64,000 bases of DNA from Escherichia coli (GTDB lineage: Bacteria > Pseudomonadota > Gammaproteobacteria > Enterobacterales > Enterobacteriaceae): the NCBI RefSeq assembly GCF_036507355.1, contig NZ_AP027877.1; one strand, 5' to 3'. The notes beneath the pieces were generated by a model, which saw nothing but the letters and a program-made list of their open reading frames with translations, had not been told where the DNA came from and searched no databases. Shown here in pieces: positions 31,747 to 55,281 of the stretch. The translations under genes were made by a program, and so were the position numbers. Position 1 is the stretch's first letter; each line of letters opens with the position of its first letter.

Positions 31747-31962
31747 AGTGTCTGCCTCCAGTGGTCAGTAATCTGGAGTGTAGGTAACCGCATTCACTCT
31801 GGCGGGAAGAATTTACAAACTGTGATCTCGCCGCGAAAACATCAATATTATCCATTTTGCTGTAACATAATTGCTTTAATTGTTAATAATATTTTGCAAT
31901 CAAGTTATCATAATCAAACAACTTCACTTGTCAGCGACACCGCTTCGTTTTTAACATCGCTT

Positions 31963-32886: not shown

Positions 32887-32923
32887 AAGGTGAAGGGATC
32901 TGTCGATCCCTCCTTGAACATTT

Positions 32924-34564
32924 TCACACCGTAGCGAAACTAACTTGTTCACCCGCTCCGCGAGGTTCTGCCGACACAGAATGTTTGTTCAGACGGAATA
33001 CGTCCACCGCCTCAGTTAATCGTGCAGCCTGTTCTTCAAGGGACACCGCCGCTGCTGAGGCCTCTTCTACCAGAGAAGCATTCTGTTGCGTCACCTTATC
33101 CATTTCAGAAATCGCCTGGCTAACCTGAGTTATGCCTCTACTTTGCTCATCCGAGGCGGCGGCGATTTCCTGCATGATATGTGTGACACTCGCGACGGCA
33201 TCAACAATAGTGCTCATGGTTTTCCCGGCCGTTGCCACCTCATCCGATCCCAGGTCAATTAACCTGACTGATTCACTGATCAAGCCTTCAATCTCTTTCG
33301 CCGCCTGGGCGCTGCGGCTTGCGAGTGTCCGTACTTCGCTGGCGACAACGGCAAATCCACGCCCTTGCTCACCCGCTCGCGCAGCTTCAACGGCAGCATT
33401 CAGTGCCAGAATATTCGTCTGGAAAGCAATACTGTTGATGACGGCGGTGATCTCAGAAATTTTCTTCGAACTCATAGAGATAGCACCCATCGTTTTTACT
33501 ACCCCGGAAACCGTCTGCCCGCCATCGCTGGCTTTAATAGAAGCCTCTTGCGCCAGTTTGCTGGCATGATGCGCGTTATCCGCATTCTGTTTCACCGTCG
33601 CAGTGAGTTGCTCCATGCTGGCGGCAGTTTGTTCGATAGCCGCCGCTTGTTCTTCGGTGCGAGATGAAAGGTCCGCATTGCCAGCGGAAATTTCGCTGGT
33701 GCCACGATAAATCTCTTCCGCGCCCTGTCGAACAGTCCCTACTGTCATCCCCAGTGAATGCTGCATTTGCTGTAAATGACGACTTAAGCGACCGATTTCA
33801 TTACGACCCGCCGGTTCATCATTCATCGTCAGATCGCCACTGGCGATTTTTTCAATCCGTTGTGCGGCATGTTGCAGTGGACGAATGACGATCTGCCGTA
33901 GCACCATAAATGTTATCAGCGTCATGACCAGGGCAAGCACAAACGCGCCAATCATGAACATCCCACCCACGCGGGTGCGCTGATGGGCCAGTTCCGCCAG
34001 TTGGTTGGCTCTGGTGCTACGTATCTTAACGGCTTTGTTCAAAATATCGGTATAAGCATTATCCAGCGTTCGGATCTGCTCACTTTCATGATTGATAATT
34101 GCTTCAAACATACCATTTTTGGCATATTTCAACATAGGTTGCATACCCGTGATATAAGCCTGAAAGCGTTGATTTAATTCAGTGTCGAGGGCTTCATCAG
34201 CAGGTGTTTTCACCGGCCGATTCTGATAAGCACGATAACCTTGCTGCGACTGTTTAATCTCCGATTCGGCTTGCGCAATATTTCGCTTCATTGCTTCCAT
34301 TTCCGCAATACGACTCGCAGCCCCGGCCTGAATCATATTGATCCGGGCTGAACGCAAAAAATCTGAACTGTTCGCTAACCCGGTCCGAATCTCAATCTCC
34401 GCAGTAACATCACGCTGATCGCGATCGGCCTGCCAGAGGAAATAGCCAGCCAGGGCTGAACTTAATGCGAATAGAACTAAGATACCGCCTAGAATGCAGG
34501 CAAATAACGGAACCAACCTGATGTGATGCAAAAAACCTAATCGCTGTGAGGGAGTTGTATTCAT
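32924..34564 (-). CDS. trg: methyl-accepting chemotaxis protein III (ribose/galactose transducer)
   Basis: 546 aa; two TM segments, HAMP region and conserved MCP signalling domain with methylation sites. Confidence 0.9.
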
Positions 34565-34603
34565 TACCGTTGTCTCTCGTCTAGGTTTACTCCTGATAGA
34601 AAG

Positions 34604-34630
34604 TCATCGGCATTTGACGGTAATTACTTA
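34604..34630 (-). promoter_or_regulatory. candidate sigma28 (FliA) promoter for trg
   Basis: Minus-strand TAAGTAAT-N11-GCCGATGA resembles the sigma28 consensus TAAAGTTT-N11-GCCGATAA; chemoreceptor genes are class III flagellar genes. Confidence 0.45.
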
Positions 34631-34859
34631 CGACTAAAAGCCTCTTTGCGTCACATTTTTACAACAATTATTGCAGAGAAGATTAATGCCATTGGAATGA
34701 AGAGAGTAACGAATGGTTAAACTGGCTAACCCGAATGACGAAAAATTCTGGAAAACAGCACGCAATTTCGTCAGGTGATTATTTTCGTCCCTAAGGAAAC
34801 CACATAGGATGCTCACGGGTGCCTGAGACTTTCTGTTTTCAGGCTAACCGGGAATCAGA

Positions 34860-34904
34860 AAGACGAAGGCCCCGACCGATATTTCTATCAACCGAGGCCA
34901 ACGA

Positions 34905-34915
<11 letters not shown>
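34860..34915 (-). ncRNA. sokB: antisense RNA SokB of the hokB/mokB toxin locus
   Basis: Placed by remembered architecture of hok/sok loci (antisense RNA overlapping the mok start region); boundaries not readable from sequence alone. Confidence 0.4.
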
Positions 34916-35112
<197 letters not shown>

Positions 35113-35183
35113 GGGCAAGCGCGGGGATTTTCCCCGCGCATCTGACTAGCAGATTCATTTTCTCATGGCACCCCTTTTATACT

Positions 35184-35357
35184 TCAGTTAGTGCATGTTT
35201 TTTTCGATGCACTAATAGAACCATCATTACAGACAAATTTGCCGCCTGCCGTACAGTGTGAGATCCCCCCTTTCGAACCAGAACAGGGTTTGCGCCCGGC
35301 ATCGGCATAAAAGGAAACAAGCGTTCCCATAAACAAAATAAGTGCCAGTTTTTTCAT
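35184..35357 (-). CDS. ydcA: small secreted Cys-containing protein
   Basis: Hand-translated 57 aa from ATG 35357 with GGAGG upstream: MKKLALILFMGTLVSFYADAGRKPCSGSKGGISHCTAGGKFVCNDGSISASKKTCTN. Confidence 0.7.
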   Translation of the reverse strand: MKKLALILFMGTLVSFYADAGRKPCSGSKGGISHCTAGGKFVCNDGSISASKKTCTN

Positions 35358-35601
35358 ATAACCTCCATGGTTTATCGAATCTTATGTTCGATTTGAACGT
35401 TATACGCTGGTTTATTTTGATACCGTTGATGAGATCAAAGATCGGGTGAATTGATTAAAAATAAGCCAGATGGACGTATGGGCAAGGATTATGGTTTTAT
35501 TTGTCATACAAATAAATATAATAGGCGCTTCCGATGTAGACCCGTATTCTTCGCCTGTACCACGGGTCGGTTTTAGTACAGGCGTTTTCTTTAAATATCC
35601 T

Positions 35602-36132
35602 TCAGGAACGTTTACGCGGCATCATGCGTAGAAGTGTGTTGTCCTTCCAGAAATAGTGGTGTGCCAGTGCAGCCGCAGCGTGCAACCCGATGACAAAATA
35701 TCCCAGATTCGCCAGCGTTTCATGCCACGACTTTAAGCTATCTACCCGTTCGAAATTGGCCTCTGAAGCGTAAGGCATCGTCAAACCAAACGCAAACCAC
35801 GGGTTGCCCCGGTTATACATCATCACCAAACCAATCACTGGCAGCGCAATAAACAGGAGATAAATCACCAAATGTCCCAAATGCGCCAGTCCCGTCATCA
35901 TCGGTTTCGGCTTAGGTATAATCGGCGGGGGTGGGTATTTCAGTCTTAACAAAAGACGAACCACCATCAGCACGAGAATTGAGATGCCACAGGAAACATG
36001 AATCATGTTGATGAGCGGCCGATCGCTACGTGGGAAGAAACCACGAAACTCCATTGCGCAATACGCTGCGATAACCAGCAAAAAGACCAGCCAGTGAATG
36101 CCGATTTGTAACCTTGAGTATTTATTTTCCAT
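35602..36132 (-). CDS. cybB: cytochrome b561
   Basis: ORF 35602-36168; ATG at 36132 (MENKYSRLQIGIHWLVFLLV...) gives 176 aa; conserved His in TM helices. Confidence 0.85.
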   Translation of the reverse strand: MENKYSRLQIGIHWLVFLLVIAAYCAMEFRGFFPRSDRPLINMIHVSCGISILVLMVVRLLLRLKYPPPPIIPKPKPMMTGLAHLGHLVIYLLFIALPVIGLVMMYNRGNPWFAFGLTMPYASEANFERVDSLKSWHETLANLGYFVIGLHAAAALAHHYFWKDNTLLRMMPRKRS

Positions 36133-36320
36133 AACATTTCCTGCTTTAACATAATTTTCCGTTAACATAACGGGCTTTTCTCAAAATTTCATTAAATATT
36201 GTTCGCCCGTTTTCAGTACGTTACGTTTCACTGTAAGAATGGAGATTGCCCATCCCACAATCCTGGTCTAAGCCTGGAAAGGATCAATTTTCATCCGAAC
36301 GTTCCTGACAGGAGAAAACC

Positions 36321-37322
36321 ATGAGTAAAGTTGGTATTAACGGTTTTGGTCGTATCGGTCGACTGGTGTTGCGTCGTTTACTTGAAGTCAAAAGCAACAT
36401 AGACGTTGTCGCTATTAATGATCTTACTTCCCCAAAAATTCTCGCCTATCTGCTGAAACATGATTCAAACTATGGTCCGTTCCCCTGGAGCGTTGATTTT
36501 ACGGAAGATTCACTTATCGTTGATGGGAAAAGTATCGCGATTTACGCCGAAAAAGAGGCTAAAAATATTCCGTGGAAAGCGAAAGGGGCAGAAATCATTG
36601 TCGAATGTACTGGCTTTTATACCTCCGCCGATAAATCGCAGGCGCATCTTGATGCTGGTGCGAAGAAGGTGTTGATTTCCGCTCCTGCCGGTGAAATGAA
36701 AACCATCGTTTATAACGTTAATGACGACACTCTGGATGGCAACGACACCATTGTTTCCGTGGCGTCATGCACCACTAACTGCCTTGCGCCGATGGCCAAA
36801 GCCTTGCATGACAGTTTCGGGATAGAAGTCGGCACGATGACGACCATTCATGCCTATACTGGCACCCAGTCACTGGTGAATGGCCCGCGTGGTAAAGATT
36901 TACGTGCTTCACGCGCAGCGGCAGAAAATATCATTCCCCACACTACGGGGGCGGCAAAAGCCATTGGTCTGGTGATCCCGGAACTGAGCGGCAAACTGAA
37001 AGGTCATGCGCAACGCGTGCCGGTGAAAACAGGTTCGGTCACTGAGCTGGTGTCCATTCTCGGAAAAAAAGTGACTGCCGAAGAGGTGAATAACGCACTT
37101 AAACAAGCAACCACCAATAACGAGTCATTTGGTTATACCGATGAAGAAATAGTCTCTTCCGATATCATTGGCAGCCATTTCGGTTCAGTGTTTGATGCCA
37201 CGCAAACGGAAATTACCGCCGTGGGCGATTTACAACTGGTGAAAACGGTCGCCTGGTACGATAACGAATATGGCTTCGTCACGCAGCTTATTCGCACCCT
37301 CGAAAAATTCGCTAAACTCTGA
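36321..37322 (+). CDS. gapC: glyceraldehyde-3-phosphate dehydrogenase C, uninterrupted reading frame
   Basis: 333-aa [23 protein letters not shown]...; NAD-binding GxGxxG; catalytic SCTTNC motif. Confidence 0.88.
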
Positions 37323-37330
37323 CGCGCACA

Positions 37331-37360
37331 GGCGGAGGGAAAAAACCTCCGCCTCTTTCA
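37331..37360. terminator. stem-loop ggcggagg/cctccgcc between convergent gapC and aldA
   Basis: Read directly; flanked by A-run and T-rich tract, so likely bidirectional. Confidence 0.6.
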
Positions 37361-37364
37361 CTCA

Positions 37365-38804
37365 TTAAGACTGTAAATAAACCACCTGGGTCTGCAGATA
37401 TTCATGCAGGCCATGTTTACCATCTGCGCCGCCAATACCGGATTTACGCCATCCGGCGTGGAAGCCTTGCATAGCTTCGAAGTTTTCACGATTGATGTAA
37501 GTTTCACCAAACTTCAGCCCTTTAATGGCTTTCATCGCGACGTTCAGATTTTGGGTATAGATTGATGAGGTCAGGCCGTAATCACTGTCATTAGCCATTG
37601 AGATAGCATCTTCCAGCGTGTCAAATGCGACTACCGGCAGAACCGGGCCAAAGGTTTCCTCATGCATAATCGACATTTCCTGGCGAACATCCAGCAGCAA
37701 TGTCGGCGGATAATAATATCCTTTCCCCTCTACCGCTTTGCCACCCAACGCCACTCTCGCCCCTTCTTCTACTGCGCGCGCCACTTTTTGCTCGACCCTT
37801 TCCAGCGCCGCGGCGTTAATCAACGGCCCCATCGCAATGTCGTTGCGTTCAGCGGGGTTACCAAATTGAACCGCCTGCATCGCTTCACCCAGCCGATTGA
37901 CGAACTGATCATAAATGCCTTTCTGTACATAAACACGTTCTGCACAGTTACACACTTGCCCACTATTAATGACGCGTGAATCAACGATGGCTTTGACTGC
38001 CAGTTCAAGATCGGCATCGTCCATTACGATAGCTGGTGCTTTACCCCCCAGTTCCAGGCACACTTTGGTGATGTTTTTCGCCGCAGTCGCCATGATCTTC
38101 TCACCTGCAGAGACGCTGCCTGTCATACTGACCATTGCGACCTTTGGGTTACCCGCCAGTTCTTGCCCAACGGTTTCACCACACCCCAGAACAAGGTTAA
38201 ACACGCCGCGCGGAAGGCCTATTTCATCGACGATTTTGGCGAATGCAATCGCATTGTTTGGCGTAAATTCACTGGGTTTAATGACAATGGTATTACCAGT
38301 CAAAAGAGCGGGAGCCATTTTGCGGGCAATGAGGAAGAACGGGAAGTTCCACGGCAGAATGCCGGTAGTCACACCAAGCGCACGTTTAAACAGAAGAATA
38401 TTTTCTCCTGGACGATCGCTTTGAATAATCTCGCCCTCGTAACGCCGTGCCCACTCCGCCATGTAATCGATATAGTCGGCAGTAAAAGCCACTTCGACTT
38501 CAGCCAGCTGCTGGATCTTGCCCCCTTCTTCAACAATCAGCGCACTGATTTCACTGGCGCGTTCGCGGATCCCGGCGGAGATTTTGCGCAACCAACTGGC
38601 GCGTTCAATAGCAGGCAACGCTTCCCATTCTGGTTGTGCACGTTCTGCTGCATCGATTGCCTTACGGGCATCCTCGGCCTGACCATCGGGTATGCGGGAA
38701 ATGACAGCCTCTGTAGCAGGGTTTACCACATCAATCCATGCGTCTCCACGCCAGGTAACAAACTGTCCATCGATATACATAGGATGTTGAACGGGTACTG
38801 ACAT
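37365..38804 (-). CDS. aldA: lactaldehyde dehydrogenase
   Basis: 479-aa ORF MSVPVQHPMYIDGQFVTWRGDAWIDVVNPATE... Confidence 0.9.
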   Translation of the reverse strand: MSVPVQHPMYIDGQFVTWRGDAWIDVVNPATEAVISRIPDGQAEDARKAIDAAERAQPEWEALPAIERASWLRKISAGIRERASEISALIVEEGGKIQQLAEVEVAFTADYIDYMAEWARRYEGEIIQSDRPGENILLFKRALGVTTGILPWNFPFFLIARKMAPALLTGNTIVIKPSEFTPNNAIAFAKIVDEIGLPRGVFNLVLGCGETVGQELAGNPKVAMVSMTGSVSAGEKIMATAAKNITKVCLELGGKAPAIVMDDADLELAVKAIVDSRVINSGQVCNCAERVYVQKGIYDQFVNRLGEAMQAVQFGNPAERNDIAMGPLINAAALERVEQKVARAVEEGARVALGGKAVEGKGYYYPPTLLLDVRQEMSIMHEETFGPVLPVVAFDTLEDAISMANDSDYGLTSSIYTQNLNVAMKAIKGLKFGETYINRENFEAMQGFHAGWRKSGIGGADGKHGLHEYLQTQVVYLQS

Positions 38805-39000
38805 GGGCGACTCCTGTGATTTATATGTTTGTTTTCGGTGAATACATTGTTAATTAACATCAATCATCATAGAGACGGCATCGTGAAAGGACAATTCTGT
38901 GAAGGGCTTCATAAAAACAAGTGTAAAAGGAATAAAAGGCAGAAATAAAAGTCAGGAGTCATGCCCGTTTGCAAACAAGTGGTTCACAAACGGGCAATTT

Positions 39001-39801
39001 TTAACGTAACGAGCGACTTTCCATCGCCTCGATGAGCACCGCATCGTGTTTAAGCGTTTGCCATGCCTGAATGACTTCTGCCGGAAAATCAACGTGAACG
39101 ATAAAATCTCGCCCGCGGGGACCGTAGCCATCGCTATCATCGCGTAAACGCGGCAGCTCGCCAGTGAGTAGTGAGAGATAACGCTCAACCGGCCATAATC
39201 CTTGTAACTGATTAATAAAGATTACACTGTCTGCGTTATTTCCTAACTGAGGAACGAATCCGGGATAACTCAACCAGCGGGGTGCATCGGGATTGTCCCC
39301 GGTCATACGGCGGAACGTTGCCATCGTGCGCCGCTGCATGGTGGGGTCCTGTACAACGATAGCCGTATGAACTCGTTCTACGGCCTGATTCAATAGCGCG
39401 ATGCTAAAGCGTGCGTTTTCACCGCAGTTTGTTGACTGGTCTTCAACCCAGATTTTTTCATGCGGAATATGCCAGAACTGATGAGCGATATCCGCCAGGA
39501 TGGTCGCTTCTGCTCTGCCAGTGGTGCGGATAGTGTTGTAGTGCGGATGCTGTGCGATGGCGCTATACAAAAAAGTTGTCGAGTGACCGATACCACCACT
39601 AATCAGTAAAGGAATTTGCTGATCGCGAGCAATCTTACATGCCGCATCGATAGTCGGCATAACCGCATTTCCTGCAAGTATGACGCAATCAGCCTGATAC
39701 GGCACCTCACCGGAGAAATCATCCTGCGCCAGCCACTGTCCGATAACATTTATGGCATCTATAGTTGCCGTCGAAAGCGTCGGAAACGGGGTAATGTTCA
39801 T
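39001..39801 (-). CDS. ydcF: DUF218-domain protein
   Basis: 266-aa [32 protein letters not shown]... Confidence 0.8.
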
Positions 39802-40013
39802 GGTTCCTCCTTATCGTTCCCTTCAGAATACTGCGTGAGATAATAGTGAGAAGCGGAGCACTCTGAAAGGAGGAAGTCGTATGTCCTTAACCGCCACTCC
39901 GCAAGCCTGACATATCTTTTAAGGAAATGCTGTAGATAAACATTATTCATCTTGCAGCAGAGAATTGTATTTTTCAGAATTCCTGAATTTTTGCCCTTAC
40001 CGTTTTAGAATTA

Positions 40014-40050
40014 AAAAACCCGGCGCTAAATGCTTACCGGGTTTTAGATT
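40014..40050. terminator. stem-loop aacccgg/ccgggtt with A-run before and T-run after, 3' of hrpA
   Basis: Read directly. Confidence 0.55.
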
Positions 40051-40069
40051 TATCAGGCAAATAGCAGGG

Positions 40070-43000
40070 TTAACCGCTAATCTGCTCCATCGCCTGCAAA
40101 ATACGCTTATCTGAAATAGGATAAGGCGTACCAAGTTGTTGAGCGAAGTAACTAACGCGCAGCTCTTCTATCATCCAACGGATCTCTTTCACGTCTTCAT
40201 CCTCACGACGTGCAGGCGGCAGTTTGTTGATCCATTGCTGCCACGCCTGCTGGACGTTTTCGACTTTCAGCATCTGAGCACGGTCGCGATGCGGATCAAC
40301 CGCCAGTTTTTCCAGCCGTTTTTCAATCGCCTGCAAATAACGCAGCGTGTCGCCCAGCCGTTTGAAGCCGTTACCAGTCACAAAACCGCGATACACCAGC
40401 CCGCCCATCTGCGCTTTAATGTCAGAAAGCCCCAGCGCCATCGTCATATCCACCCGCCCTTTCAGGCGTTTGTTGATATTGAACACCGCAGTGAGGATTT
40501 GCTCGACCTGCTTCGCAATATCCACCACCGTGTCATTCAGTTCGGCGCGCACTTTTTCATGCAGCGCAGCAAAGCCTTCTTCCGTCCAGACCGGGCCACC
40601 ATTGGCGTCGATCAGTTGATCCACGCCGCAGGAGATACAATCGTCGATCAGATCCAACACTTTGCCATACGGGTTAAAGTACAGCCCTAACTTGGCTTTA
40701 TTTGGCAACTTCTCATGCAAATATTTGATTGGCGAAGGAATATTCAGCAACAGTAAACGGCGAAGGCCGTTCCACATTGCCTGTTTTTGCTCCAGCGGAT
40801 TATCAAACAGTTTGATCGCCACACTGTCGCGTTCATCAACCAGCGCAGGCCACGCCTTCACTTTGTAGTTGCCACGCTTCTGCTCGTAGCTTTCCGGCAG
40901 TTGTCCAAAGCTCCAGATATGCAGTCCGCTCTGCTCGATACCGTCATCCGCCACCGCAGACAACGTTTCCTGTACTTTGCCTTTTAGCGCCTCTTTCAGT
41001 GCCTGCAAAGAACGTCCTTCCTGAAGCTTCTTGTTTTTGTCATCCACCACGCGGAAGGTGATTTTCAGGTGATCGGGCACTTGATCCCAGTGCCAGTCTT
41101 CGCGGTCAACGGTAACGCCGGTCATCCGCCGTAACTCGCGCTCAAGGCTGTCGAGCAACGGTAACTCCAATGGTGTTGCGCGGCCTAAAAACGCTTCGGC
41201 GTAGTTTGGCGCAGGTACAAAATTACGGCGTACCGGTTTCGGCAGCGATTTAATCAGAGCAATCACCAGTTCGCGGCGCAGACCGGGGATCTGCCACTCA
41301 AACCCGCTCTCCTCAACCTGGTTAAGCAGCGGCAGCGGAATATGTACGGTCACGCCGTCAGCATCTGCCCCCGGCTCAAACTGATAGCTCAAACGCAGCT
41401 TGAGATTGCCCTGATGCCAGAAGTTCGGGTAATCCAGTTTGCTGATTTTTTCTGCGCCCTCTTTGATCAACATGCTTTTTTCAAAGTTGAGCAAATCAGG
41501 GGTTTCGCGGCTGACTTTTTTCCACCAGCTGTCGAAGTGACGAGCGGAGATTACATCGTGGCTGATGCGCTGGTCGTAGAACTCAAACAGCGTTTCGTCA
41601 TCCACCAGAATATCGCGGCGACGTGATTTGTGTTCCAGCTCTTCCACTTCCGCCCGCAGTTTCAGGTTTTCACGGAAGAATGCGTGACGCGTCTGCCAGT
41701 CACCTTCCACCAGCGCGTGGCGAATAAAGAGTTCACGACATAACGCCGGATCGATCTGGCTGTAGTTGACCTTGCGCGCAGCAACAATCGGCAAACCATA
41801 AACAGTGACTTTTTCCGTTGCCATCACCGCGCCCTGCGCCCGTTCCCAGTGCGGTTCGCTGTAGGTGCGTTTAATCAAATGCTGAGCGACAGGCTCCACC
41901 CATTCCGGGTCGATACGCGCAGCAATGCGGCCCCACAGGCGGCTGGTTTCTACCAGTTCCGCCACCATTACCCATTTCGGCGGTTTTTTGAATAAACCAG
42001 AACCGGGGAAGATGGAGAAACGCGCGTTACGTGCGCCGGTATATTCTTGTTTATCGGCATCTTTCATGCCGATATGCGAAAGCAAACCGGTCAGTAAGGC
42101 GATGTGAATTTCGCGATACTCCGCCGGTTCGCTGTTAACCGGAATGCCAAGCTCTTTCACCACCTGGCGCAACTGAGTGTAGATATCCTGCCATTCGCGC
42201 ACGCGCAGATAGTTGAGATAATCGGTACGACACAGGCGACGGAAGGCGTTAGAAGAAAGCGCCTTTTGCTGCTCGCCAAGATAATTCCACAGATTTACAA
42301 ACGCGAGGAAGTCGGATTCTTTGTCGTGGAAGCGACGATGTTTTTCGTCCGATGCCTGCTGTTTGTCCATCGGACGTTCGCGCGGATCCTGAATGGAGAG
42401 CGCGGACGTGATAATCATCGCCTCACGCACGCAGCCATGTTTTTGCGCTTCCAGCACCATACGCGCCAGACGTGGGTCGACAGGCAACTGCGAGAGCTGG
42501 CGACCGAGCGGCGTCAGTTTATAGGCGCTGGCCTGTTCATCAGTGGTGATCGCGCCCAGCTCTTCGAGCAGACGCACGCCATCCTGGATATTGCGTTTAT
42601 CCGGTGCTTCGACAAACGGGAACGCAGCGATATCGCCCAGCCCCAGCGCGGTCATCTGCAAAATAACCGAGGCCAGGTTGGTACGCAGAATCTCCGGATC
42701 GGTAAACTCCGGGCGCGAGAGGAAATCGTCTTCGGAATAGAGACGAATACAGATCCCTTCGGACACACGACCACAGCGGCCTTTACGCTGATTGGCAGAC
42801 GCCTGGGAAATCGGCTCAATCGGCAAACGCTGCACTTTGGTGCGATAGCTGTAGCGGCTGATACGTGCTGTACCGGGGTCGATAACGTATTTAATCCCCG
42901 GTACGGTCAGCGAGGTTTCCGCGACGTTGGTCGCCAGCACAATACGCCGTCCACTGTGCGACTGGAACACGCGGTTCTGTTCGCTGTTCGAAAGCCGCGC

Positions 43001-43972
43001 ATAAAGCGGCAAGATTTCGGTATGACGCAGATTTAGCTTGTTCAGCGCATCGGCGGTATCGCGAATTTCCCGCTCGCCGCTCATAAAGATCAGAATGTCG
43101 CCGGGGCTTTCCTGGCTCAGTTCGTCTACGGCGTCAAAAATCGCCTGCAATTGATCGCGCTCGGTGTCATCGGCTTCTTCAACAATCGGGCGATAGCGCA
43201 CTTCCACCGGATAGGTCCGACCGGAGACTTCAATAATCGGCGCATTATTAAAGTGGCGCGAAAAGCGTTCCGGGTCGATAGTCGCGGAAGTGATAATGAT
43301 TTTTAGGTCAGGACGCCGCGGCAGCAACTCTTTCAAATAGCCGAGCAAAAAATCGATATTCAGGCTGCGTTCGTGCGCTTCGTCAATAATGATAGTGTCG
43401 TACTGCATCAGCAGGCGGTCTTGCTGGATCTCCGCCAGCAGGATACCGTCGGTCATCAGCTTGACCATCGTGTTATCACTTACGTGATCGCTGAAACGCA
43501 CTTTGTAACCGATGCAACCGCCCGGCTCCGTTTTCAGCTCTTCCGCAATACGGTTCGCCACTGTTCTTGCCGCCAGACGACGCGGCTGGGTATGGCCGAT
43601 CAGCCCTTTAATCCCGCGCCCCAGCTCCATACAGATTTTCGGTAGCTGAGTCGTTTTACCGGAACCGGTTTCCCCGGCGACGATCACCACCTGGTGATCA
43701 CGAATCGCTTCGAGAATGTCCTGCTTTTTCTGACTAACCGGTAAATTGTCAGGGTAAGTAATTTCCGGTCGTGCCGCTTCACGCAGCAGGACTTTCCCTG
43801 CCGCCTGGTCAATCTCTTTCGCCATCTCCTGGAAAATGGCCTGTTGTGCATCAGGATTTTTAACCTTCTTCACACCATGCAGACGGCGAGAAAAACGCAG
43901 TCTGTCACGCAGCATCAGCGAATCCAGCCGCTGCTGCAAAGCAGTAAAGGTCAATTTTTGTTGTTCTGTCAT
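40070..43972 (-). CDS. hrpA: ATP-dependent RNA helicase HrpA (DEAH-box)
   Basis: 1300 aa; Walker A GETGSGKTTQ and DEAH box IIIDEAHERS. Confidence 0.92.
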   Translation of the reverse strand: MTEQQKLTFTALQQRLDSLMLRDRLRFSRRLHGVKKVKNPDAQQAIFQEMAKEIDQAAGKVLLREAARPEITYPDNLPVSQKKQDILEAIRDHQVVIVAGETGSGKTTQLPKICMELGRGIKGLIGHTQPRRLAARTVANRIAEELKTEPGGCIGYKVRFSDHVSDNTMVKLMTDGILLAEIQQDRLLMQYDTIIIDEAHERSLNIDFLLGYLKELLPRRPDLKIIITSATIDPERFSRHFNNAPIIEVSGRTYPVEVRYRPIVEEADDTERDQLQAIFDAVDELSQESPGDILIFMSGEREIRDTADALNKLNLRHTEILPLYARLSNSEQNRVFQSHSGRRIVLATNVAETSLTVPGIKYVIDPGTARISRYSYRTKVQRLPIEPISQASANQRKGRCGRVSEGICIRLYSEDDFLSRPEFTDPEILRTNLASVILQMTALGLGDIAAFPFVEAPDKRNIQDGVRLLEELGAITTDEQASAYKLTPLGRQLSQLPVDPRLARMVLEAQKHGCVREAMIITSALSIQDPRERPMDKQQASDEKHRRFHDKESDFLAFVNLWNYLGEQQKALSSNAFRRLCRTDYLNYLRVREWQDIYTQLRQVVKELGIPVNSEPAEYREIHIALLTGLLSHIGMKDADKQEYTGARNARFSIFPGSGLFKKPPKWVMVAELVETSRLWGRIAARIDPEWVEPVAQHLIKRTYSEPHWERAQGAVMATEKVTVYGLPIVAARKVNYSQIDPALCRELFIRHALVEGDWQTRHAFFRENLKLRAEVEELEHKSRRRDILVDDETLFEFYDQRISHDVISARHFDSWWKKVSRETPDLLNFEKSMLIKEGAEKISKLDYPNFWHQGNLKLRLSYQFEPGADADGVTVHIPLPLLNQVEESGFEWQIPGLRRELVIALIKSLPKPVRRNFVPAPNYAEAFLGRATPLELPLLDSLERELRRMTGVTVDREDWHWDQVPDHLKITFRVVDDKNKKLQEGRSLQALKEALKGKVQETLSAVADDGIEQSGLHIWSFGQLPESYEQKRGNYKVKAWPALVDERDSVAIKLFDNPLEQKQAMWNGLRRLLLLNIPSPIKYLHEKLPNKAKLGLYFNPYGKVLDLIDDCISCGVDQLIDANGGPVWTEEGFAALHEKVRAELNDTVVDIAKQVEQILTAVFNINKRLKGRVDMTMALGLSDIKAQMGGLVYRGFVTGNGFKRLGDTLRYLQAIEKRLEKLAVDPHRDRAQMLKVENVQQAWQQWINKLPPARREDEDVKEIRWMIEELRVSYFAQQLGTPYPISDKRILQAMEQISG

Positions 43973-44163
43973 AACGTTAGAGGGCAGTAGTCTGCCTGAT
44001 TAATTTTCTTTTAAATGATAGATATAGAGTACCACATCGCGGCTTTCTATGCGTTGTTCAATAAATTCGAACATAGGCTTCGATTTATTGCGCTATCTCT
44101 GTGGCAGGATTGTGAATAAAGTGTCAACAAGCAACGGGGCATCGCCCATTCAAACATCTATAA

Positions 44164-44778
<615 letters not shown>

Positions 44779-44792
44779 CCGGACACGGTCTT

Positions 44793-44822
44793 GATGTGGA
44801 CTGTAGATATTCAGTCCACATC
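44793..44822. other. intergenic stem-loop gatgtggactg / cagtccacatc between azoR and ynbD
   Basis: Inverted repeat read directly; no clear U-tract. Confidence 0.4.
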
Positions 44823-44831
44823 TCAATCCAC

Positions 44832-47895
<3,064 letters not shown>

Positions 47896-47910
47896 TTTCT
47901 CTATTTTCCT

Positions 47911-48807
47911 TCAGTAACAGCAGTAGCGAATAAAATAAAAAAATACCGGATCGGTGAAAATTAATGAGTCAATCCTGTCAAGGAGTCCGCCATGTCCTGG
48001 TAATAGTTTTCCGCTATCTTTAACACCAATATCTCGTTTGATGGCTGACATCACTACATCGCCGCAAAAACCACTAATACCAATTAACAAACCCGCTAAT
48101 AATGCCTGTAATGTATTTAGCGGTGTCAGCAACGGTCCAATAATCAGTGACGCAATCATGGTGGTGATGACGCCCCCCACCAGACCTTCCAGCGTTTTTC
48201 CCGGGCTGACTTTGGGGACCACTTTTCTTCTGCCGCAGGATTTCCCCCATAAATACTGTGCAATATCGTTTGACTCTGTTAACGCCAAAAGAAATAACAC
48301 CAGTAACGCCCCGCCCTGGGTATTTATGGTTGGCAACATTAATAGCCAGGCGGTATGACTCAAGGCGAAAACGGTCATTATCCAGCCCCAAAAAATGGCG
48401 CTCACGATATGCAGAAAACCGGAGGGATCACCCACAAAAACTCGCCAGGTGGCTAATATCAGAAACCCAGTCAAAGGTATAAATAACAGAAACAGCTCAA
48501 AGCAATTAAAACCGATAAGCAAATAGTTAAGAGGAATAACCCAATATAACCAACGCGGAAAATGTACGGATATAAGCGTACAATATTCTTTCAATGCCAG
48601 AAAACTTATCAGCGCAAAAAACGTCAACGTCATCCAGCGTGGACCTGAAATCACCAGTGAAAAACAAATGACGATACCCCACCAGGTACGAATACGTAAT
48701 GTAACTTCATCCCCTTTTCTCTCCGGTAACCGCCATACCCGAAAACGGTTTATCAGCGTTGCTAAAATTAACAACGCGAAAAGTGTTGCCAGAGATTTTT
48801 CCAGCAT
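47911..48807 (-). CDS. ynbB: CDP-diglyceride synthase (CdsA)-like membrane protein
   Basis: 298-aa polytopic ORF; 1-nt start/stop overlap with ynbA. Confidence 0.8.
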   Translation of the reverse strand: MLEKSLATLFALLILATLINRFRVWRLPERKGDEVTLRIRTWWGIVICFSLVISGPRWMTLTFFALISFLALKEYCTLISVHFPRWLYWVIPLNYLLIGFNCFELFLLFIPLTGFLILATWRVFVGDPSGFLHIVSAIFWGWIMTVFALSHTAWLLMLPTINTQGGALLVLFLLALTESNDIAQYLWGKSCGRRKVVPKVSPGKTLEGLVGGVITTMIASLIIGPLLTPLNTLQALLAGLLIGISGFCGDVVMSAIKRDIGVKDSGKLLPGHGGLLDRIDSLIFTDPVFFYFIRYCCY

Positions 48808-49412
48808 TATCTTTCAGCACTCATCAGGAGCACACTCCGACAACGATTAATCGCAGTCCAGATAAGCAGAATTGAAGCAATGCCCCATAAAAGATTATTC
48901 CATTGCATCCACTGTGGATAAATGGCAACGGCCAGCCCCCACAACCCAAATATTAACGCACGATCGCTTTTGCCGAATGGACCGGCATAACTGCGAATAC
49001 CGTTAATCGTCTGCGCGAGTAAACCGCAAAACTCAGTCAATATGGTGCAAAATAACATGAGTATTACGAGTGATGCGTTACTTTCCGGTAAAAATAAAAA
49101 CGGTAAATAGAGCGCAATATCGGAAATAACATCGCCAGTTTCATTCAAAATCGCCCCCAGACGTGTTTGCTGATTGCACTCACGCGCCAACATGCCATCC
49201 AGCGCATTGAGTGCCATACGGATAAAAAGCACGATGGGCAATAGCAAAAAGAGGATGGGTTGTGCGACCAACATCAACAGCAATCCGTTAATAAGAGAAA
49301 GCGCCAGTGCAGCAAGAGTGATGTGATTCGCTGTAACATGGTGCTTATAAAGCCAAAACATCGTCGGCCTTAACAGCGACTGAAAGAGCGGTTTTATCTG
49401 GTAGAGCGTCAT
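48807..49412 (-). CDS. ynbA: CDP-alcohol phosphatidyltransferase family protein
   Basis: ORF 48807-49418; ATG third codon gives 201 aa; motif DGMLAR...G...LNETGDVISD fits the CDP-alcohol phosphatidyltransferase signature. Confidence 0.8.
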   Translation of the reverse strand: MTLYQIKPLFQSLLRPTMFWLYKHHVTANHITLAALALSLINGLLLMLVAQPILFLLLPIVLFIRMALNALDGMLARECNQQTRLGAILNETGDVISDIALYLPFLFLPESNASLVILMLFCTILTEFCGLLAQTINGIRSYAGPFGKSDRALIFGLWGLAVAIYPQWMQWNNLLWGIASILLIWTAINRCRSVLLMSAER

Positions 49413-49581
49413 TATCAATCCTTGATAATTCGGTTTGCGCTATGGTGCATCAATTCCCCTGACGGAGATATCGCAACACGACGCTTCATTAAAAATTCAG
49501 AATATATCAAGGTATTGGGGACTCACTGTCAGGAATGATTATCCCAATAAATCAAGTGGTTAAAAATTATTACGCTGTTAT

Positions 49582-50478
49582 TCAATACAACTCATCAAGT
49601 TTTCTCATCGCTTGTTCCCGTATTGCGCGCGTCTTACCGTTAAGCGCCAGCTGGCGAACTAAATCCAGTTCAGGGTTAACAAGCTCTAACGCCAGCAAAG
49701 GATCACGTTTCAGCCTCGCCTTTAATACATCAACTGGAAAACGGGGATTATTCATCGCCACAATCCACCACTCGGGATCAATTTCTGCCGCCAGTACTGC
49801 AGGCGGTGTGTGGCGGTTGTTAAGTGCGCCGAACTTGAAAAATGTGAGATTGCTTTTCGCCAGTGTACTCCACCATATACGATCCGGTTGTTTTGCCAGT
49901 ACATCCAGTTGTGCTAACGCATCGGGGTCTAGTGCATAATAAACACGTAACGCTTCGTTAACCTGCGCACGGGAACTGTTTTCCTGCCTCAGAAAAAACT
50001 TCGCCCAAATATCATTGCGTGGCGTGTTTTGCTGTAATTCCTTGAGAACAACAGCGGGTAAATTATCCCAACTAATTAATGCACTCTCTAAAAAGTCCCA
50101 GTCGTCCGAACGTATCAGAGAGGTGGCATTTAATAGCATCTGGTCATCAACTTCACCGTAGCTGATAAGCTCAGACAAAATCATATCAGCGCTGGTTTCA
50201 TATGCATCTGAATCTGCTTTGGGATTATTTTTCCGATGCGATAAAGCACGTTGCCAAATTTTTTGTTTCATCGACGTGCTCAGATACTGATTTTTCGCCA
50301 GATTACTCCACCCCTCAGGATCGTTGAAACGTGTCAATAACCGTTGTAAAGCAGCGTCAGAGTGAATTATCTGCATATCCCGACAGCAAAAGTAGGCAGG
50401 GGATTTTTTCTCCATCCTTTTAACAAAATTAAACTGTAAGTTATCTGGCAACGCTAAAAATAACGCATCTATTAGATC
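49582..50478 (-). pseudogene. ydbD: 3' portion of ydbD-like gene, 5' end replaced by IS1
   Basis: 289-codon ORF whose frame stays open up to and into the IS1 terminal repeat (first stop lies inside IS1 at 50494-50496); the intact gene is remembered as about 768 codons. Confidence 0.55.
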
Positions 50479-50493
50479 GGTAATGACTCCAAC

Positions 50494-50997
50494 TTATTGA
50501 TAGTGTTTTATGTTCAGATAATGCCCGATGACTTTGTCATGCAGCTCCACCGATTTTGAGAACGACAGCGACTTCCGTCCCAGCCGTGCCAGGTGCTGCC
50601 TCAGATTCAGGTTATGCCGCTCAATTCGCTGCGTATATCGCTTGCTGATTACGTGCAGCTTTCCCTTCAGGCGGGATTCATACAGCGGCCAGCCATCCGT
50701 CATCCATATCACCACGTCAAAGGGTGACAGCAGGCTCATAAGATGCCCCAGCGTCGCCATCGTGCGTTCACCGAATACGTGCGCAACAACCGTCTTCCGG
50801 AGCCTGTCATACGCGTAAAACAGCCAGCGCTGGCGCGATTTAGCCCCGACATAGCCCCACTGTTCGTCCATTTCCGCGCAGACGATGACGTCACTGCCCG
50901 GCTGTATGCGCGAGGTTACCGACTGCGGCCTGAGTTTTTTAAGTGACGTAAAATCGTGTTGAGGCCAACGCCCATAATGCGGGCTGTTGCCCGGCAT
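50494..50997 (-). CDS. insB: IS1 InsB (made as InsAB' transposase by -1 frameshift)
   Basis: 167-aa ORF; differs from the second copy at one residue (…[10 protein letters not shown]… versus …[10 protein letters not shown]…). Confidence 0.9.
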
Positions 50998-51191
50998 CCA
51001 ACGCCATTCATGGCCATATCAATGATTTTCTGGTGCGTACCGGGTTGAGAAGCGGTGTAAGTGAACTGCAGTTGCCATGTTTTACGGCAGTGAGAGCAGA
51101 GATAGCGCTGATGTCCGGCGGTGCTTTTGCCGTTACGCACCACCCCGTCAGTAGCTGAACAGGAGGGACAGCTGATAGAAACAGAAGCCAC
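50916..51191 (-). CDS. insA: IS1 InsA (transposition repressor / N-terminal part of transposase)
   Basis: 91-aa [43 protein letters not shown]... Confidence 0.9.
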
Positions 51192-51246
51192 TGGAGCACC
51201 TCAAAAACACCATCATACACTAAATCAGTAAGTTGGCAGCATCACC

Positions 51247-53479
51247 CACGTCGGTATCAGCCGTTTTGTTTGTGTTGCTAAATGCAATCGAACGGCTACT
51301 GTCAAGGTTGTGAACGTCATAACGCAATGCGTTATTCCAGTTCATGCCGTTGTCGAAGGACATCTGATGTTTCAGGCCAAAGAACTGGCTATAACCACCT
51401 GTGACGCCATTATCACCCGCTTTCTGCGCACCATCACCATCGAGACGAGCGATACCGTATTCCAGGCTCATGCTCTGGCTTTCGCTCAGGTCAACGGTTT
51501 TACGCAGTGCCAGCATGTCATACTCGGTGTTATTTCCGAGTTCCTCACGCGGGTCACCTTTCGCCACCACGTTAAAGGCCAGGCCATTGCCCACCTTCGG
51601 CGCGGCATCCGCCAGCATGCTGAAGCGGTTGCTTAACATACGCGCTTCACGGAATACCGTGGTCGCCTGGCTACCGCTCACCTGCTTCAGGGCGCTATTC
51701 AGTTCAGCAGTGGTGCCCACGTTCAGGCTGGTATACAGCTCGTTATTGGTGTAACCCGCATCCAGTGCCTTCGCCACATCGTTCACCGAAGCATCGGTCG
51801 CCACATCGGTGTAGGCGTTTTTGCTCATGATGACGTCAACGTTGCCGCTGGCATCGGTGCTGCCTTTGGCGGTCCATACCACGGACGTTGAGGTGATGGC
51901 ATCGGCGTCGGTCAGGTTGATGCCTTCCACCACGTTGTCGAAACTGACCGTGGTGTCTGCCGTACCGGCGGCGAAACCGGTGTTGATCCCGACACCATTC
52001 ATGCTGGCGTTGTTGACCTTCAGTTTACCGGCGCTGCCGTCAACGTTGGTACCGACGATATAGCCGTTGAGGTTGTTACTGCTGCCATCGCTACTACCGC
52101 TATCAGTCGTTTCACTGAAAGGTGAAGTGGTGTAAGTGTTTGGCATGTCCGGCAACGTGTAGTCGGTGTAATGCACTTCGGTATTGTTACCGCTGTTGCC
52201 GTTCACCCCTTCCACATTCACGCTGTCGCCCTGCTTAATCAACCCCGAACCAGTCACGCCGTCGGCAATCACCACCGTACCGTTGTTAACGATATGACCT
52301 TCTGTGCCCAGTACGCTGAACGCAAACGAGTCGTTAGCAAAAATATTGATCGTGCCGTTGTTCTCAATTACCGCATCGGCGGTGGCATTGGCATCCAGTT
52401 GCATACCAGTCAATCCGGTATCGGTGGTGCCTTCGGTACCGAGATTGATAACACCGTTGTTAACCAGCTGTGCGTTTTTATCGCCTTCCATCGCCACGGC
52501 GTTGTTGCCGCTGATGTTCATTACACCATCGTTGAGAGCAACATAGTTGTTGTGGGTGAATTTAACCGCGCTGGCGTTGTCTTTATCGAAGTTAATTACC
52601 CCGCCATCCTGGTTCCACAAGAAGGCATCGCTTTCTGTCGCACCGGCAGTACTTACCGCCACGGTGACTTTCGCATCCACCACGCCCTTGTTAATAAACT
52701 GGCTGGCGCCATCGTCATAGTGAATAGCGCCCGCACCTAATGCGGCATCCAGCGTCATTTCACCGGTGTTATATAACGTGGCGTTAGCATTGCTGCCCTG
52801 GAAGCGAATGGCGTTTTTGCTGTTATCAAGGATGAGTTTGCCGCTGTTGTTGAACGTTGACTTATCGTCAATATCCAGCGTCCCGGCATTGTTGTTTTCA
52901 TCCTGATAACCCATTTTCCAGGTACCCGCGTTATTCACTACCGCAGAGTTATAGAGAATCGCGCCTTTACGCGCCTCGCCGCCTGCAAGGTTATTGAATA
53001 CCGCATCGCCCTGAGCGTTAACGCGCGCCGACGCAATACCGCTGTTATTCACCGTACCATCGTGAAGTTGTAAAGTTGACAGGGAACCGGTGTTATTAAT
53101 TACCGCGTTGCTGTTTTTCTCAATTTTTACGACGTCATTAAGCGTTCCGTTGTTATTGAAGGTCCCTCCTTCCAAAGTCACCGTGTTCAATACACCTTCA
53201 TTGGTTAACGCACCGCCTGCATTCACGACGATGGCTGAGCTAATGGTTCCGCTCGACTCGTTAACCAGCGCACCATTTTCGAGTATCCTGATCGTTCCAT
53301 TTTTAACAGCACCCGCACTGGTGACATCCCCGTTGATAATCGCACCAGACGATAATAATACGGTCTCACCCGCAGAACTTAATACATCGCCATCATCATA
53401 CAAATCGGCGATATAATTATCCGTCGGATTATATTCATCGGCCCCCTGGCAAACCCCAAAGGTACAAATGGTGCCATAG
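51247..53479 (-). pseudogene. ydbA: internal fragment of an autotransporter adhesin gene (ydbA-like), both ends cut by IS1
   Basis: 757-codon ORF with no native start or stop (frame runs into both IS1 ends); N/G/T/S-rich beta-helix repeats of a passenger domain, then the start of a beta-barrel translocator domain. Confidence 0.7.
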
Positions 53480-53534
53480 GGTGATGCTGCCAACTTACTG
53501 ATTTAGTGTATGATGGTGTTTTTGAGGTGCTCCA

Positions 53535-53810
53535 GTGGCTTCTGTTTCTATCAGCTGTCCCTCCTGTTCAGCTACTGACGGGGTGGTGCGTAACGGCAAA
53601 AGCACCGCCGGACATCAGCGCTATCTCTGCTCTCACTGCCGTAAAACATGGCAACTGCAGTTCACTTACACCGCTTCTCAACCCGGTACGCACCAGAAAA
53701 TCATTGATATGGCCATGAATGGCGTTGGATGCCGGGCAACAGCCCGCATTATGGGCGTTGGCCTCAACACGATTTTACGTCACTTAAAAAACTCAGGCCG
53801 CAGTCGGTAA
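53535..53810 (+). CDS. insA: IS1 InsA
   Basis: 91-aa ORF identical in protein sequence to the other IS1 copy. Confidence 0.9.
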
Positions 53811-54232
53811 CCTCGCGCATACAGCCGGGCAGTGACGTCATCGTCTGCGCGGAAATGGACGAACAGTGGGGCTATGTCGGGGCTAAATCGCGCCAGCGCT
53901 GGCTGTTTTACGCGTATGACAGGCTCCGGAAGACGGTTGTTGCGCACGTATTCGGTGAACGCACGATGGCGACGCTGGGGCGTCTTATGAGCCTGCTGTC
54001 ACCCTTTGACGTGGTGATATGGATGACGGATGGCTGGCCGCTGTATGAATCCCGCCTGAAGGGAAAGCTGCACGTAATCAGCAAGCGATATACGCAGCGA
54101 ATTGAGCGGCATAACCTGAATCTGAGGCAGCACCTGGCACGGCTGGGACGGAAGTCGCTGTCGTTCTCAAAATCGGTGGAGCTGCATGACAAAGTCATCG
54201 GGCATTATCTGAACATAAAACACTATCAATAA
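53729..54232 (+). CDS. insB: IS1 InsB
   Basis: 167-aa ORF. Confidence 0.9.
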
Positions 54233-54764
54233 GTTGGAGTCATTACCCTGGACTTACGTGTTTTTTCGGTTGAGTCGGGTATTGAAGTATCCGCAGCCCA
54301 TGTCTGGCTACTTAACGCCATGGCAACACAAACAGACAATAATTTTTTCCTTTGCATATAAAATTCCTTAGATCTAGACCGTGCGTAACAAGCCATGCAG
54401 AATTTGAAGATAAATCGTAGTAAATATTCATAGTGAAATAAGCAATAAAGAAATGCTTATATAATTCACAAAATCAATATTAAAATCAGGCAAGTAAAAG
54501 CATACAAAAAAACAGTTGATGGAATTATATTCCACAAAAAACTCACTTCAATCTAAAAATTAACGACAAAAAACAAAAACACACTAATAATTCATTGACG
54601 CTGCATATATATTTTGTGATTACATATATATTGGTAATGATTTGTTATTTAAGGGAAGGATATATAAGGTTTTTGTAGAAATATCCACGGTAATTAAGCA
54701 TGCTAACGTCAGTTTAAATACTGTAAAAGATCATTAATAGATACATTTTGTAGCCAACTATAAT

Positions 54765-55091
54765 TTATTTGCGCAACCATTTACCATTAATTCCCTGAAC
54801 ATATTGCCCCGACTTCGCGCGAGCAACAAGCTTTTGTCCAGCCAGTTTGGCTATCTCTTTAGTGGATACATTATTTTGCTTTGCCAGTTGTTGGTAACTA
54901 TGGTTACGAGCTTCATTAATATCTTTTACTAATGCCTGTGTTTCGGCATCCGTTTGTAGCGCCACCAGGTAACCGTTAAGCGTTTCACCTACCCGCCCCT
55001 GACTTCTGGCTTCGTTCAGGGTTAAAGCCATTGCACTGTCGCTCATCAGGCCAATGGCCCATACAGCTATGAGTAATGTTCTTTTCATCAT
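54765..55091 (-). CDS. ydbL: periplasmic protein (DUF1318)
   Basis: ORF 54765-55169; ATG at 55091 (MMKRTLLIAVWAIGLMSDSAMA...) gives about 108 aa with signal peptide. Confidence 0.75.
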   Translation of the reverse strand: MMKRTLLIAVWAIGLMSDSAMALTLNEARSQGRVGETLNGYLVALQTDAETQALVKDINEARNHSYQQLAKQNNVSTKEIAKLAGQKLVARAKSGQYVQGINGKWLRK

Positions 55092-55095
55092 CACC

Positions 55096-55281
55096 TCAAA
55101 ATAGATCGCTACGGGTTTTGAGCAGGTCTTCAACGTCCTTATCCGCTTTAATGATGATTTCATGCTCAATTTTAACGTTCATATTAATGGTGATTGGCTC
55201 TTTCGGCGCAGCCACTTCAATGCGAGGCGTGCAACCAACCAACATAAAAGAGGACGCAAACGCGGCTATCACTATTTTCAT
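55096..55281 (-). CDS. ynbE: small lipoprotein
   Basis: 61-aa ORF with lipobox MLVGC. Confidence 0.75.
   Translation of the reverse strand: MKIVIAAFASSFMLVGCTPRIEVAAPKEPITINMNVKIEHEIIIKADKDVEDLLKTRSDLF

Follow-up and report, generated by a model that had tools for sequence, protein, structure and literature searches.

A probable recent IS1 deletion scar in the ynbA-ydbD-pdxI-bigA-ydbL locus of an Escherichia coli lineage that lacks the paa/tynA/feaB/feaR block there

Introduction

Classical IS1-promoted deletions were reportedly described by Reif and Saedler in 1975 in the gal region of Escherichia coli. Such adjacent deletions start exactly at an IS1 terminus, keep the element, lose its target duplication and vary in their endpoints, and the locus described here resembles them in these respects. 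It differs in carrying two inverted IS1 copies that enclose 2.2 kb of remaining bigA and are each accompanied by ~3 kb lost outward, and in coming from a natural isolate rather than a selected laboratory mutant. Stepwise growth of deletions from anchored IS150 copies was found in the long-term evolution experiment (PMC11708052). Here, too, target duplications are missing and related genomes show differing endpoints from what is apparently the same IS position. However, the element is IS1, and the order of events is read from three related natural assemblies rather than observed.

The locus itself also has precedents. In K-12, the same autotransporter gene (ydbA, here bigA) is a pseudogene inactivated by insertion sequences. 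There, simple IS2D and IS30C insertions left the gene fragments in place, whereas here IS1 is accompanied by loss of ~60% of the gene together with pdxI and part of ydbD; moreover, the two alleles are only ~85% identical. The adjoining feaR-feaB-tynA-paa block is polymorphic for presence and absence. For tynA, absence was found in 28 of 28 O157:H7 isolates tested, and O157:H7 and CFT073 are given as examples of tynA-negative E. coli (PMC4640556). The ydbL–ydbA interval studied here is of the same paa-less type as that of O157:H7 EDL933; IS1 does not delimit the polymorphism in this case, which offers nothing new.

Results

Two inverted IS1 copies interrupt ydbD and bigA

We analysed a 64-kb stretch of E. 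coli DNA (the window) in which two IS1 copies flank a fragment of bigA (Table 1). A first, sequence-only reading noted that the ydbD and autotransporter frames run directly into IS1 ends, and the open frames on both sides confirm this. The ydbD remnant stays open as far as the end of IS1A and lacks its first 1,410 nt. The retained bigA fragment corresponds to nt 3153–5385 of 5865, or about codons 1052–1795 of 1954; it forms one stop-free frame of 744 codons and matches the NCBIfam auto_BigA model (E=8e-150). The same reading held that only IS1, a fragment and IS1 remain in this interval. That structure stands, but the description leaves out 54248–54764, which preserves the start of bigA and a complete spacer towards ydbL.

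Table 1 Features of the scar locus in window coordinates, from left to right.
Feature	Position	Strand	Remarks
ynbA, intact, first whole gene left of the scar	48807-49412	-	100% identical to L016 12477-13082
ydbD 3' remnant, final 298 of 768 codons, with stop	49582-50478	-	100% identical to L016 11411-12307
IS1A	50479-51246	-	768 bp; IRR at 50479, IRL at 51246; insA/insB on - strand
bigA/ydbA internal fragment, 2,233 bp, native order and orientation	51247-53479	-	100% identical to L016 6157-8389
IS1B	53480-54247	+	768 bp; IRL at 53480, IRR at 54247
bigA/ydbA first 110 nt, start codon 54355-54357	54248-54357	-	maps to L016 3005-3114
bigA-ydbL spacer, 407 bp, paa-less type, whole, IS-free	54358-54764		collinear with L001, L002 and L016
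ydbL, intact, first whole gene right of the scar	54765-55088	-	maps to L016 2274-2597

Both elements are IS1 copies by length, inverted repeats, frameshift motif and transposase family. They are mutually inverted, differ by a single mismatch at IS position 503, and carry imperfect terminal inverted repeats of ~23 bp (GGTGATGCTGCCAACTTACTGAT / GGTAATGACTCCAACTTATTGAT). Their insA and insB' ORFs encode 91 and 167 aa, with the A6C frameshift motif AAAAAAC at IS position 307, and InsA and InsB' match the IS1 family transposase model NCBIfam NF033558 (E=7.5e-26 and 3e-42). The copies are 99.7–99.9% identical to IS1 annotated as IS1A family in contigs L018 and L020, and ~99.0% identical to an IS1B-family copy in L019.

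Neither copy is bordered by a target-site duplication

A target duplication of 8–9 bp is a property of a simple IS1 insertion event, not of the IS1 element itself. As the sequence-only reading had observed, the ends of the two copies lack matching 8–9 bp direct repeats, and no flank pairing is consistent with an inversion. Among all direct and reverse-complement pairings of the four 9-bp flanks (TATTAGATC, CACGTCGGT, GTGCCATAG and CTGGACTTA), the best agreement was 4/9. By comparison, three further E. coli strains have IS1 inserted at other sites of this locus, and there the element is bordered by duplications of 8, 8 and 9 bp. The missing duplication at both copies marks a later rearrangement.

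An inversion between the inverted IS1 copies was rejected as the origin of the mismatched flanks, since the fragment is natively oriented and no flanks match as reverse complements. The unit does not behave as an IS1 composite transposon either: the outer flanks TATTAGATC and CTGGACTTA differ, and the would-be passenger keeps its native order and orientation next to the genes it belongs with.

The loss amounts to 6,063 bp relative to an IS1-free sister

The size of the loss was measured against an intact reference, the sister assembly GCA_016660925.1 (L010/L016), which differs from the window by 4 mismatches in ~25.8 kb of shared flanks. Identity is 100% at window 40000–50478 and 51247–53479, with one mismatch over 54248–57361 and three over 30070–40000. 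The sister has the intact order ydbL - bigA/ydbA (1954 aa) - pdxI - ydbD - ynbA and no IS1 in the locus. In the window, IS1A stands in place of 3,021 bp (L016 8390–11410) comprising the 3' end of bigA, the whole of pdxI and the beginning of ydbD, and IS1B stands in place of 3,042 bp (L016 3115–6156) lying entirely within bigA. The window lacks exactly these two blocks, 6,063 bp in total, and neither was found anywhere across its 64 kb. The genes affected are therefore part of ydbD (the first 470 codons), all of pdxI (ydbC) and ~60% of bigA/ydbA.

The breakpoints on L016 (3114|3115, 6156|6157, 8389|8390 and 11410|11411) show zero microhomology, which excludes slippage or microhomology-mediated deletion. 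Each lost block is contiguous in the relative and starts exactly at an IS1 terminus, as in adjacent deletion. The proposal that the IS1 copies mark deletions is thus upheld, with the flanking genes ending exactly at IS1 termini; the proposal that tens of kilobases were removed is not.

Assembly breaks are classically caused by IS1, and mis-joins over collapsed IS1 repeats could in principle mimic this structure while both 3-kb blocks were still present. However, each of the four junctions coincides exactly with an IS1 terminus, the bigA fragment keeps its native order and orientation, and independent sibling assemblies also have IS1 ends abutting the locus. A mis-join would itself presuppose IS1 at all four sites. 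We regard an artefact as very improbable.

Absence of the paa block is separate from the IS1 deletions

The much larger deletion had been postulated from K-12 gene order, which comparison with K-12 confirms. In K-12, a 19.2-kb feaR-feaB-tynA-paaZ-paaA..K-paaXY-ynbG block sits between ydbL and the ydbA start codon. With this order as the starting point, and with no paa, fea or tyn sequence in the 64-kb window, IS1-adjacent deletions would have stripped a K-12-like ancestor of tens of kilobases, with paa, tynA, feaB and feaR among the genes removed. However, the position of the K-12 block corresponds to window 54358–54764, which lies outside both IS1 copies as an uninterrupted spacer identical to that of the sister and common to paa-less genomes. 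Window 54370–54766 has no detectable similarity to K-12.

The relatives tell the same story. Those compared were six assemblies at ≥99.97% identity, others at 99.3–99.5%, and PS10-3 and O157:H7 EDL933 at 98.4–99.4%. Every close relative recovered, including the four-mismatch sister, has ydbL directly beside bigA with no paa between. Among 5426 complete E. coli genomes, 373, O157:H7 included, share the paa-less ydbL–bigA junction at 95–99.8% identity, and only 3154 have paaA–E. IS1 is thus not at the K-12 position of the aromatic-catabolism block, IS1-free relatives are also without the block at this locus, and the measured deletion is only 6,063 bp. Together, these observations leave an IS1-mediated loss of the block with almost no probability. 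Because the K-12 block site is here an intact paa-less spacer, the absence of paa/tynA/feaB/feaR is, judged from these alignments, a polymorphism of the locus in its own right, much older than the scar and unrelated to IS1. K-12 is the wrong reference for comparing this lineage.

Sibling assemblies point to a possible anchoring at the inner junctions

In two siblings (≥99.97% identical; GCA_905398585.1 and GCA_905398635.1), an IS1 IRR end oriented as in the window lies farther out from the bigA fragment's position. In one, represented by contig L033, the IRR end abuts window 49233, inside ynbA and 1,245 bp past the left junction. In the other, contig L036, it abuts window 54489, in the spacer and 241 bp past the right junction. 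L033 and L036 are short-read contigs from different assemblies that end 74–75 nt into IS1, before the inner junctions and the bigA fragment come into view.

The L033 contig stops inside ynbA and lacks ydbD. Within the collection, exact matches to the intact YdbD protein come from no more than six contigs, each of 50–200 kb. Had IS1 simply inserted in ynbA, ydbD should be left on a contig of smaller size; no such contig is recorded, so ydbD appears to have been lost from the L033 samples. It is on the outward-shifted IRR ends of L033 and L036, in the same orientation as in the window, that the proposed anchoring at the inner junctions rests.

Searches for intermediates and for the same structure in other genomes gave no match. 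No precursor with a simple IS1 insertion and target duplication at either inner junction was found among the relatives retrieved. Look-ups of the predicted products gave no record of the ydbD remnant (289 aa) or the bigA fragment (757, 653 and 564 aa); a 277-aa ydbD product is on record only in unrelated lineages with a split ydbD or beside a different IS1 insertion. A homologue search with the bigA fragment gave cluster representatives only, with no 100%-identical truncated form among them. The IS1-fragment-IS1 structure is present in none of the complete RefSeq E. coli genomes, and over 20 kb none of these exceeds 98.5% identity. An exact-pattern scan for the left junction in species-representative genomes gave no match.

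Discussion

We conclude with good confidence that the ynbA-ydbD-pdxI-bigA(ydbA)-ydbL locus bears a recent scar of IS1 deletion at strain level, in a lineage without the paa/tynA/feaB/feaR block there, and that insertions at the inner junctions were probably followed by outward adjacent deletions. IS1 adjacent deletion is the most likely mechanism. In a first step, two IS1 copies would have entered bigA at what are now the inner (IRL) junctions (51246/51247 and 53479/53480). In a second, each copy would have undergone intramolecular replicative transposition and so deleted the DNA beside its own outer (IRR) end, an adjacent deletion that would take away one copy of the target duplication. Single-event models (a duplicative inversion, then deletion) are not preferred, as they take no fewer steps than two insertions and two adjacent deletions, with an extra flip besides.

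Homologous recombination between direct IS1 pairs at the ends of each block would leave the same product, namely one IS1 with mismatched flanks and no microhomology. It is a recognised reason for absent target duplications (PMC11708052), and the locus has been repeatedly struck by IS1 in other strains. However, four IS1 insertions within 8.3 kb would be needed before the two recombinations, the sister has none in the locus, and the outer junctions of L033 and L036 would call for further independent insertions. We consider this route unlikely. That it yields a final sequence identical to that of adjacent deletion nevertheless counts against our preferred explanation, as do the fruitless search for a precursor, the siblings' short-read contigs from separate assemblies and the near-equal deletion sizes (3,021 and 3,042 bp), for which adjacent deletion does not account.

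One-step capture of an IS during deletion formation has been proposed for IS5 and IS481 (PMC11708052). If IS1 were likewise captured at DNA breaks, without target cuts made by its transposase, neither a target duplication nor microhomology would be present, as is the case here. Such capture is not an established route for IS1, it would have to occur twice at neighbouring sites, and the classical two-step route covers everything seen. We think it highly improbable.

The window, GCA_905398585.1 and GCA_905398635.1 could represent successive outward deletions from an inverted IS1 pair anchored in bigA. We offer this reading tentatively. It would amount to a natural time series in which ydbD, ynbA and the bigA promoter region are erased step by step; the IS1-bigA'-IS1 unit could also be a newly formed composite transposon.

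Read against the gene order of K-12, the deletion came out about four times too large, and a metabolic loss, that of phenylacetate and phenylethylamine catabolism, was attributed to the wrong event. No growth on phenylacetate or phenylethylamine is expected for either the strain or its IS1-free sister. The deletions cost the strain its pdxI gene (pyridoxal reductase), 470 residues at the N terminus of YdbD, and a working BigA-type autotransporter. The scar is an ordinary, already known kind of event and has little importance beyond strain annotation; it shows IS1 eroding a locus that insertion sequences have repeatedly struck in E. coli.

Two IS1 copies without target-site duplications

The window contains only two IS1 copies, IS1A on the left and IS1B on the right. 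They are mutually inverted, measure 768 bp each and differ by a single base at IS position 503. Both carry canonical terminal repeats and, at position 307, the A6C frameshift site; their InsA/InsB' products match the NCBIfam IS1 transposase model. We looked for a target duplication among the four 9-bp flanks of the two copies (TATTAGATC, CACGTCGGT, GTGCCATAG and CTGGACTTA). In all direct and reverse-complement pairings, the best agreement was 4/9, so neither copy resembles a simple insertion. As controls, IS1 elements in the same locus of three other E. coli strains (L018, L019 and L020) proved to be simple insertions with duplications of 8, 8 and 9 bp. An inversion between IS1A and IS1B was considered as the cause of the mismatched flanks and rejected, since the reverse-complement pairings did no better. 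The sequence-only reading had reported the missing duplications, the lack of an inversion-consistent pairing, and ydbD and autotransporter frames that run straight into IS1 ends; all three hold.

Features of the IS1 scar and related sibling contigs (window positions unless a contig is named; IRL/IRR, left/right terminal inverted repeats)
Feature	Position	Orientation	Remarks
ydbD frame	49582-50478		open directly to IS1 end
IS1A	50479-51246	insA/insB on minus strand; IRR end left, IRL end right	junctions read base by base
BigA-type autotransporter frame	51247-53479		744 codons without a stop, reaching IS1 ends directly
IS1B	53480-54247	IRL end left, IRR end right	junctions read base by base
Sibling IS1 ends	L033 1-76 to window 49233; L036 1-75 to window 54489		lineage identity at least 99.97%

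Insertion sequences recur in this region. One metagenomic contig, which belongs to another E. coli lineage (L029 1-181; 98% identical; near window 50478), has its own independent IS1 in ydbD; this copy has the same orientation and lies 43 bp from the left junction of the window. In other strains, IS1 is found within ynbB, within bigA and in the leader of bigA (L018-L020), and K-12 has IS2 and IS30 in ydbA, the same gene as bigA. Together, these cases show that the locus is repeatedly struck by insertion sequences.

Two deletions measured against a sister assembly

No complete RefSeq E. coli genome compared over 20 kb of the window was closer than 98.5%, and we therefore sought close relatives by looking up exact protein matches. 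With HrpA from the window, this approach reached contig DADCDS010000023.1 of GCA_016660925.1, which shows three mismatches over 30070-50478, none over 51247-53479 and one over 54248-57361. Its locus (L016) contains no IS1 and reads ydbH-ynbE-ydbL-bigA/ydbA (1954 aa)-pdxI-ydbD (768 aa)-ynbA. Mapping the window onto L016 gave four clean breakpoints: the left flank ends at 11411, the right flank starts at 3114, and the retained middle fragment corresponds to 6157-8389 in native orientation. Missing at IS1A are 3,021 bp (L016 8390-11410), comprising the last 480 nt of bigA, the complete pdxI gene and the first 1,410 nt of ydbD. Missing at IS1B are 3,042 bp (L016 3115-6156), wholly within bigA. The total loss relative to the sister is 6,063 bp, affecting ydbD, pdxI and bigA, and neither block is present elsewhere in the window. 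The two deletions, flanking a 2,233-bp retained fragment, are nearly equal in size; we found no mechanism that predicts this, and it may be a coincidence.

An IS1 lies exactly at each deletion, with no target duplication, no microhomology at either endpoint pair and a natively oriented retained fragment. We infer that each arose by the classical IS1 adjacent-deletion route. In this process, an IS1 already in place would attack a second site close by on its own molecule through replicative transposition; the intervening DNA would be lost as a circle, and a single IS1 would stay behind with an old sequence on one side and a new one on the other. Two directly oriented IS1 copies might instead have recombined to produce each deletion, with an identical product, but that route requires four insertions in 8.3 kb compared with two for adjacent deletion. 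The events are very recent, since a sister with 4 differences in ~25,800 bases is without them.

bigA itself is variable. Its alleles (window 51247-53479 versus L001-L008) are 85-98% identical between strains, compared with 97-99.5% for flanking genes, and several short-read contigs break within an internal bigA repeat (for example, L016 position 3556).

Differing IS1 ends in sibling assemblies

Two sibling short-read contigs carry IS1 ends at other positions. L033 (GCA_905398585.1; 4 mismatches in 13 kb) stops 75 nt into an IS1 whose IRR end abuts the window sequence within ynbA, 1,245 bp beyond the left junction. L036 (GCA_905398635.1; 3 mismatches in 9.5 kb) likewise stops inside IS1, its IRR end lying in the bigA-ydbL spacer, 241 bp beyond the right junction. 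Both IRR ends face outward, as in IS1A and IS1B. Their positions, further out than in the window, suggest that one and the same IS1 pair gave rise to deletions of differing reach. The L033 contig ends within ynbA and lacks ydbD. In the collection, just six contigs, each of 50-200 kb, encode the exact intact YdbD protein; the shorter intact-ydbD contig expected from a simple ynbA insertion is not on record there, which speaks for loss of ydbD in the L033 samples. On the simplest reading of contigs that end inside IS1 and come from different assemblies, both copies would be fixed where their inner IRL ends meet the bigA fragment, and their outer ends would have deleted outward to differing extents among isolates. 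The long-term evolution experiment provides documented cases of such stepwise deletion for IS150 (PMC11708052).

Absence of the aromatic-catabolism block

The K-12 genome confirms the gene order assumed in the sequence-only reading: ydbL, feaR, feaB, tynA, paaZ, paaA-K, paaXY, ynbG, ydbA, pdxI, ydbD, ynbA, with a 19.2-kb fea/tyn/paa block between the ydbL end and the ydbA start codon. The window's counterpart of that position is 54358-54764, an IS-free 407-bp spacer right of IS1B, with the first 110 nt of bigA before it. This spacer is identical to the sister's and has no detectable similarity to K-12, homology returning only at ydbL; over 54248-54900, identity is 99.4% with E. coli PS10-3 and 98.5% with O157:H7 EDL933. 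No paa, fea or tyn sequence occurs within the 64-kb window. Because ydbL directly adjoins bigA in every relative recovered (98.4% to 100% identity), the block was absent from the locus in this lineage before the IS1 events and was not removed by IS1. The proposal of IS1-associated deletion thus stands, but not its size of tens of kilobases or its paa content: the measured loss is 6.06 kb, and the block's position is an IS-free spacer.

Among 5426 complete E. coli genomes, 373 have the same ydbL-bigA junction and only 3154 have paaA-E. By PCR screening, tynA is variable in E. coli and was absent in 28/28 O157:H7 isolates tested (PMC4640556). The last 133 nt of ydbL (54767-54900) differ from K-12 at 27 positions, compared with ~96-97% identity over the next 5 kb, and the adjoining spacer (54370-54766) has no K-12 counterpart; the presence/absence polymorphism of fea/tyn/paa has its edge at this divergent stretch. 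Another E. coli contig (L022 1-10000) shows a deletion variant of its own at this locus: pdxI comes directly after paaY, bigA is wholly absent and the paaG-paaK region is mostly missing, with a C-terminal paaK fragment of 76 aa next after paaF.

The window differs from K-12 elsewhere as well. Immediately downstream of patD, a 1.3-kb segment absent in K-12 (10464-11776) carries the gene for a hexapeptide-repeat acetyltransferase of 269 aa, whose similarity to Vat/CatB xenobiotic acetyltransferases is sub-threshold. gapC (36321-37322), a pseudogene in K-12, is an intact 333-codon frame in the window and siblings. The K-12 IS609 (insQ, yncK) between ydcL and ydcO is missing at 23871/23872, where the flanks join cleanly.

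Relation to known systems

The IS1-bigA'-IS1 arrangement has the layout of a composite transposon. Unlike one that has moved, it has no duplication at its outer flanks and still lies in its native context; it has therefore not transposed as a unit. K-12 ydbA is likewise inactivated by insertion sequences, there IS2 and IS30. IS1 elements, IS1-promoted adjacent deletions, ydbA inactivation by insertion sequences and the fea/tyn/paa presence/absence polymorphism are all already established. The scar departs in nothing from these phenomena and is, at strain level, an ordinary event of a type already known.
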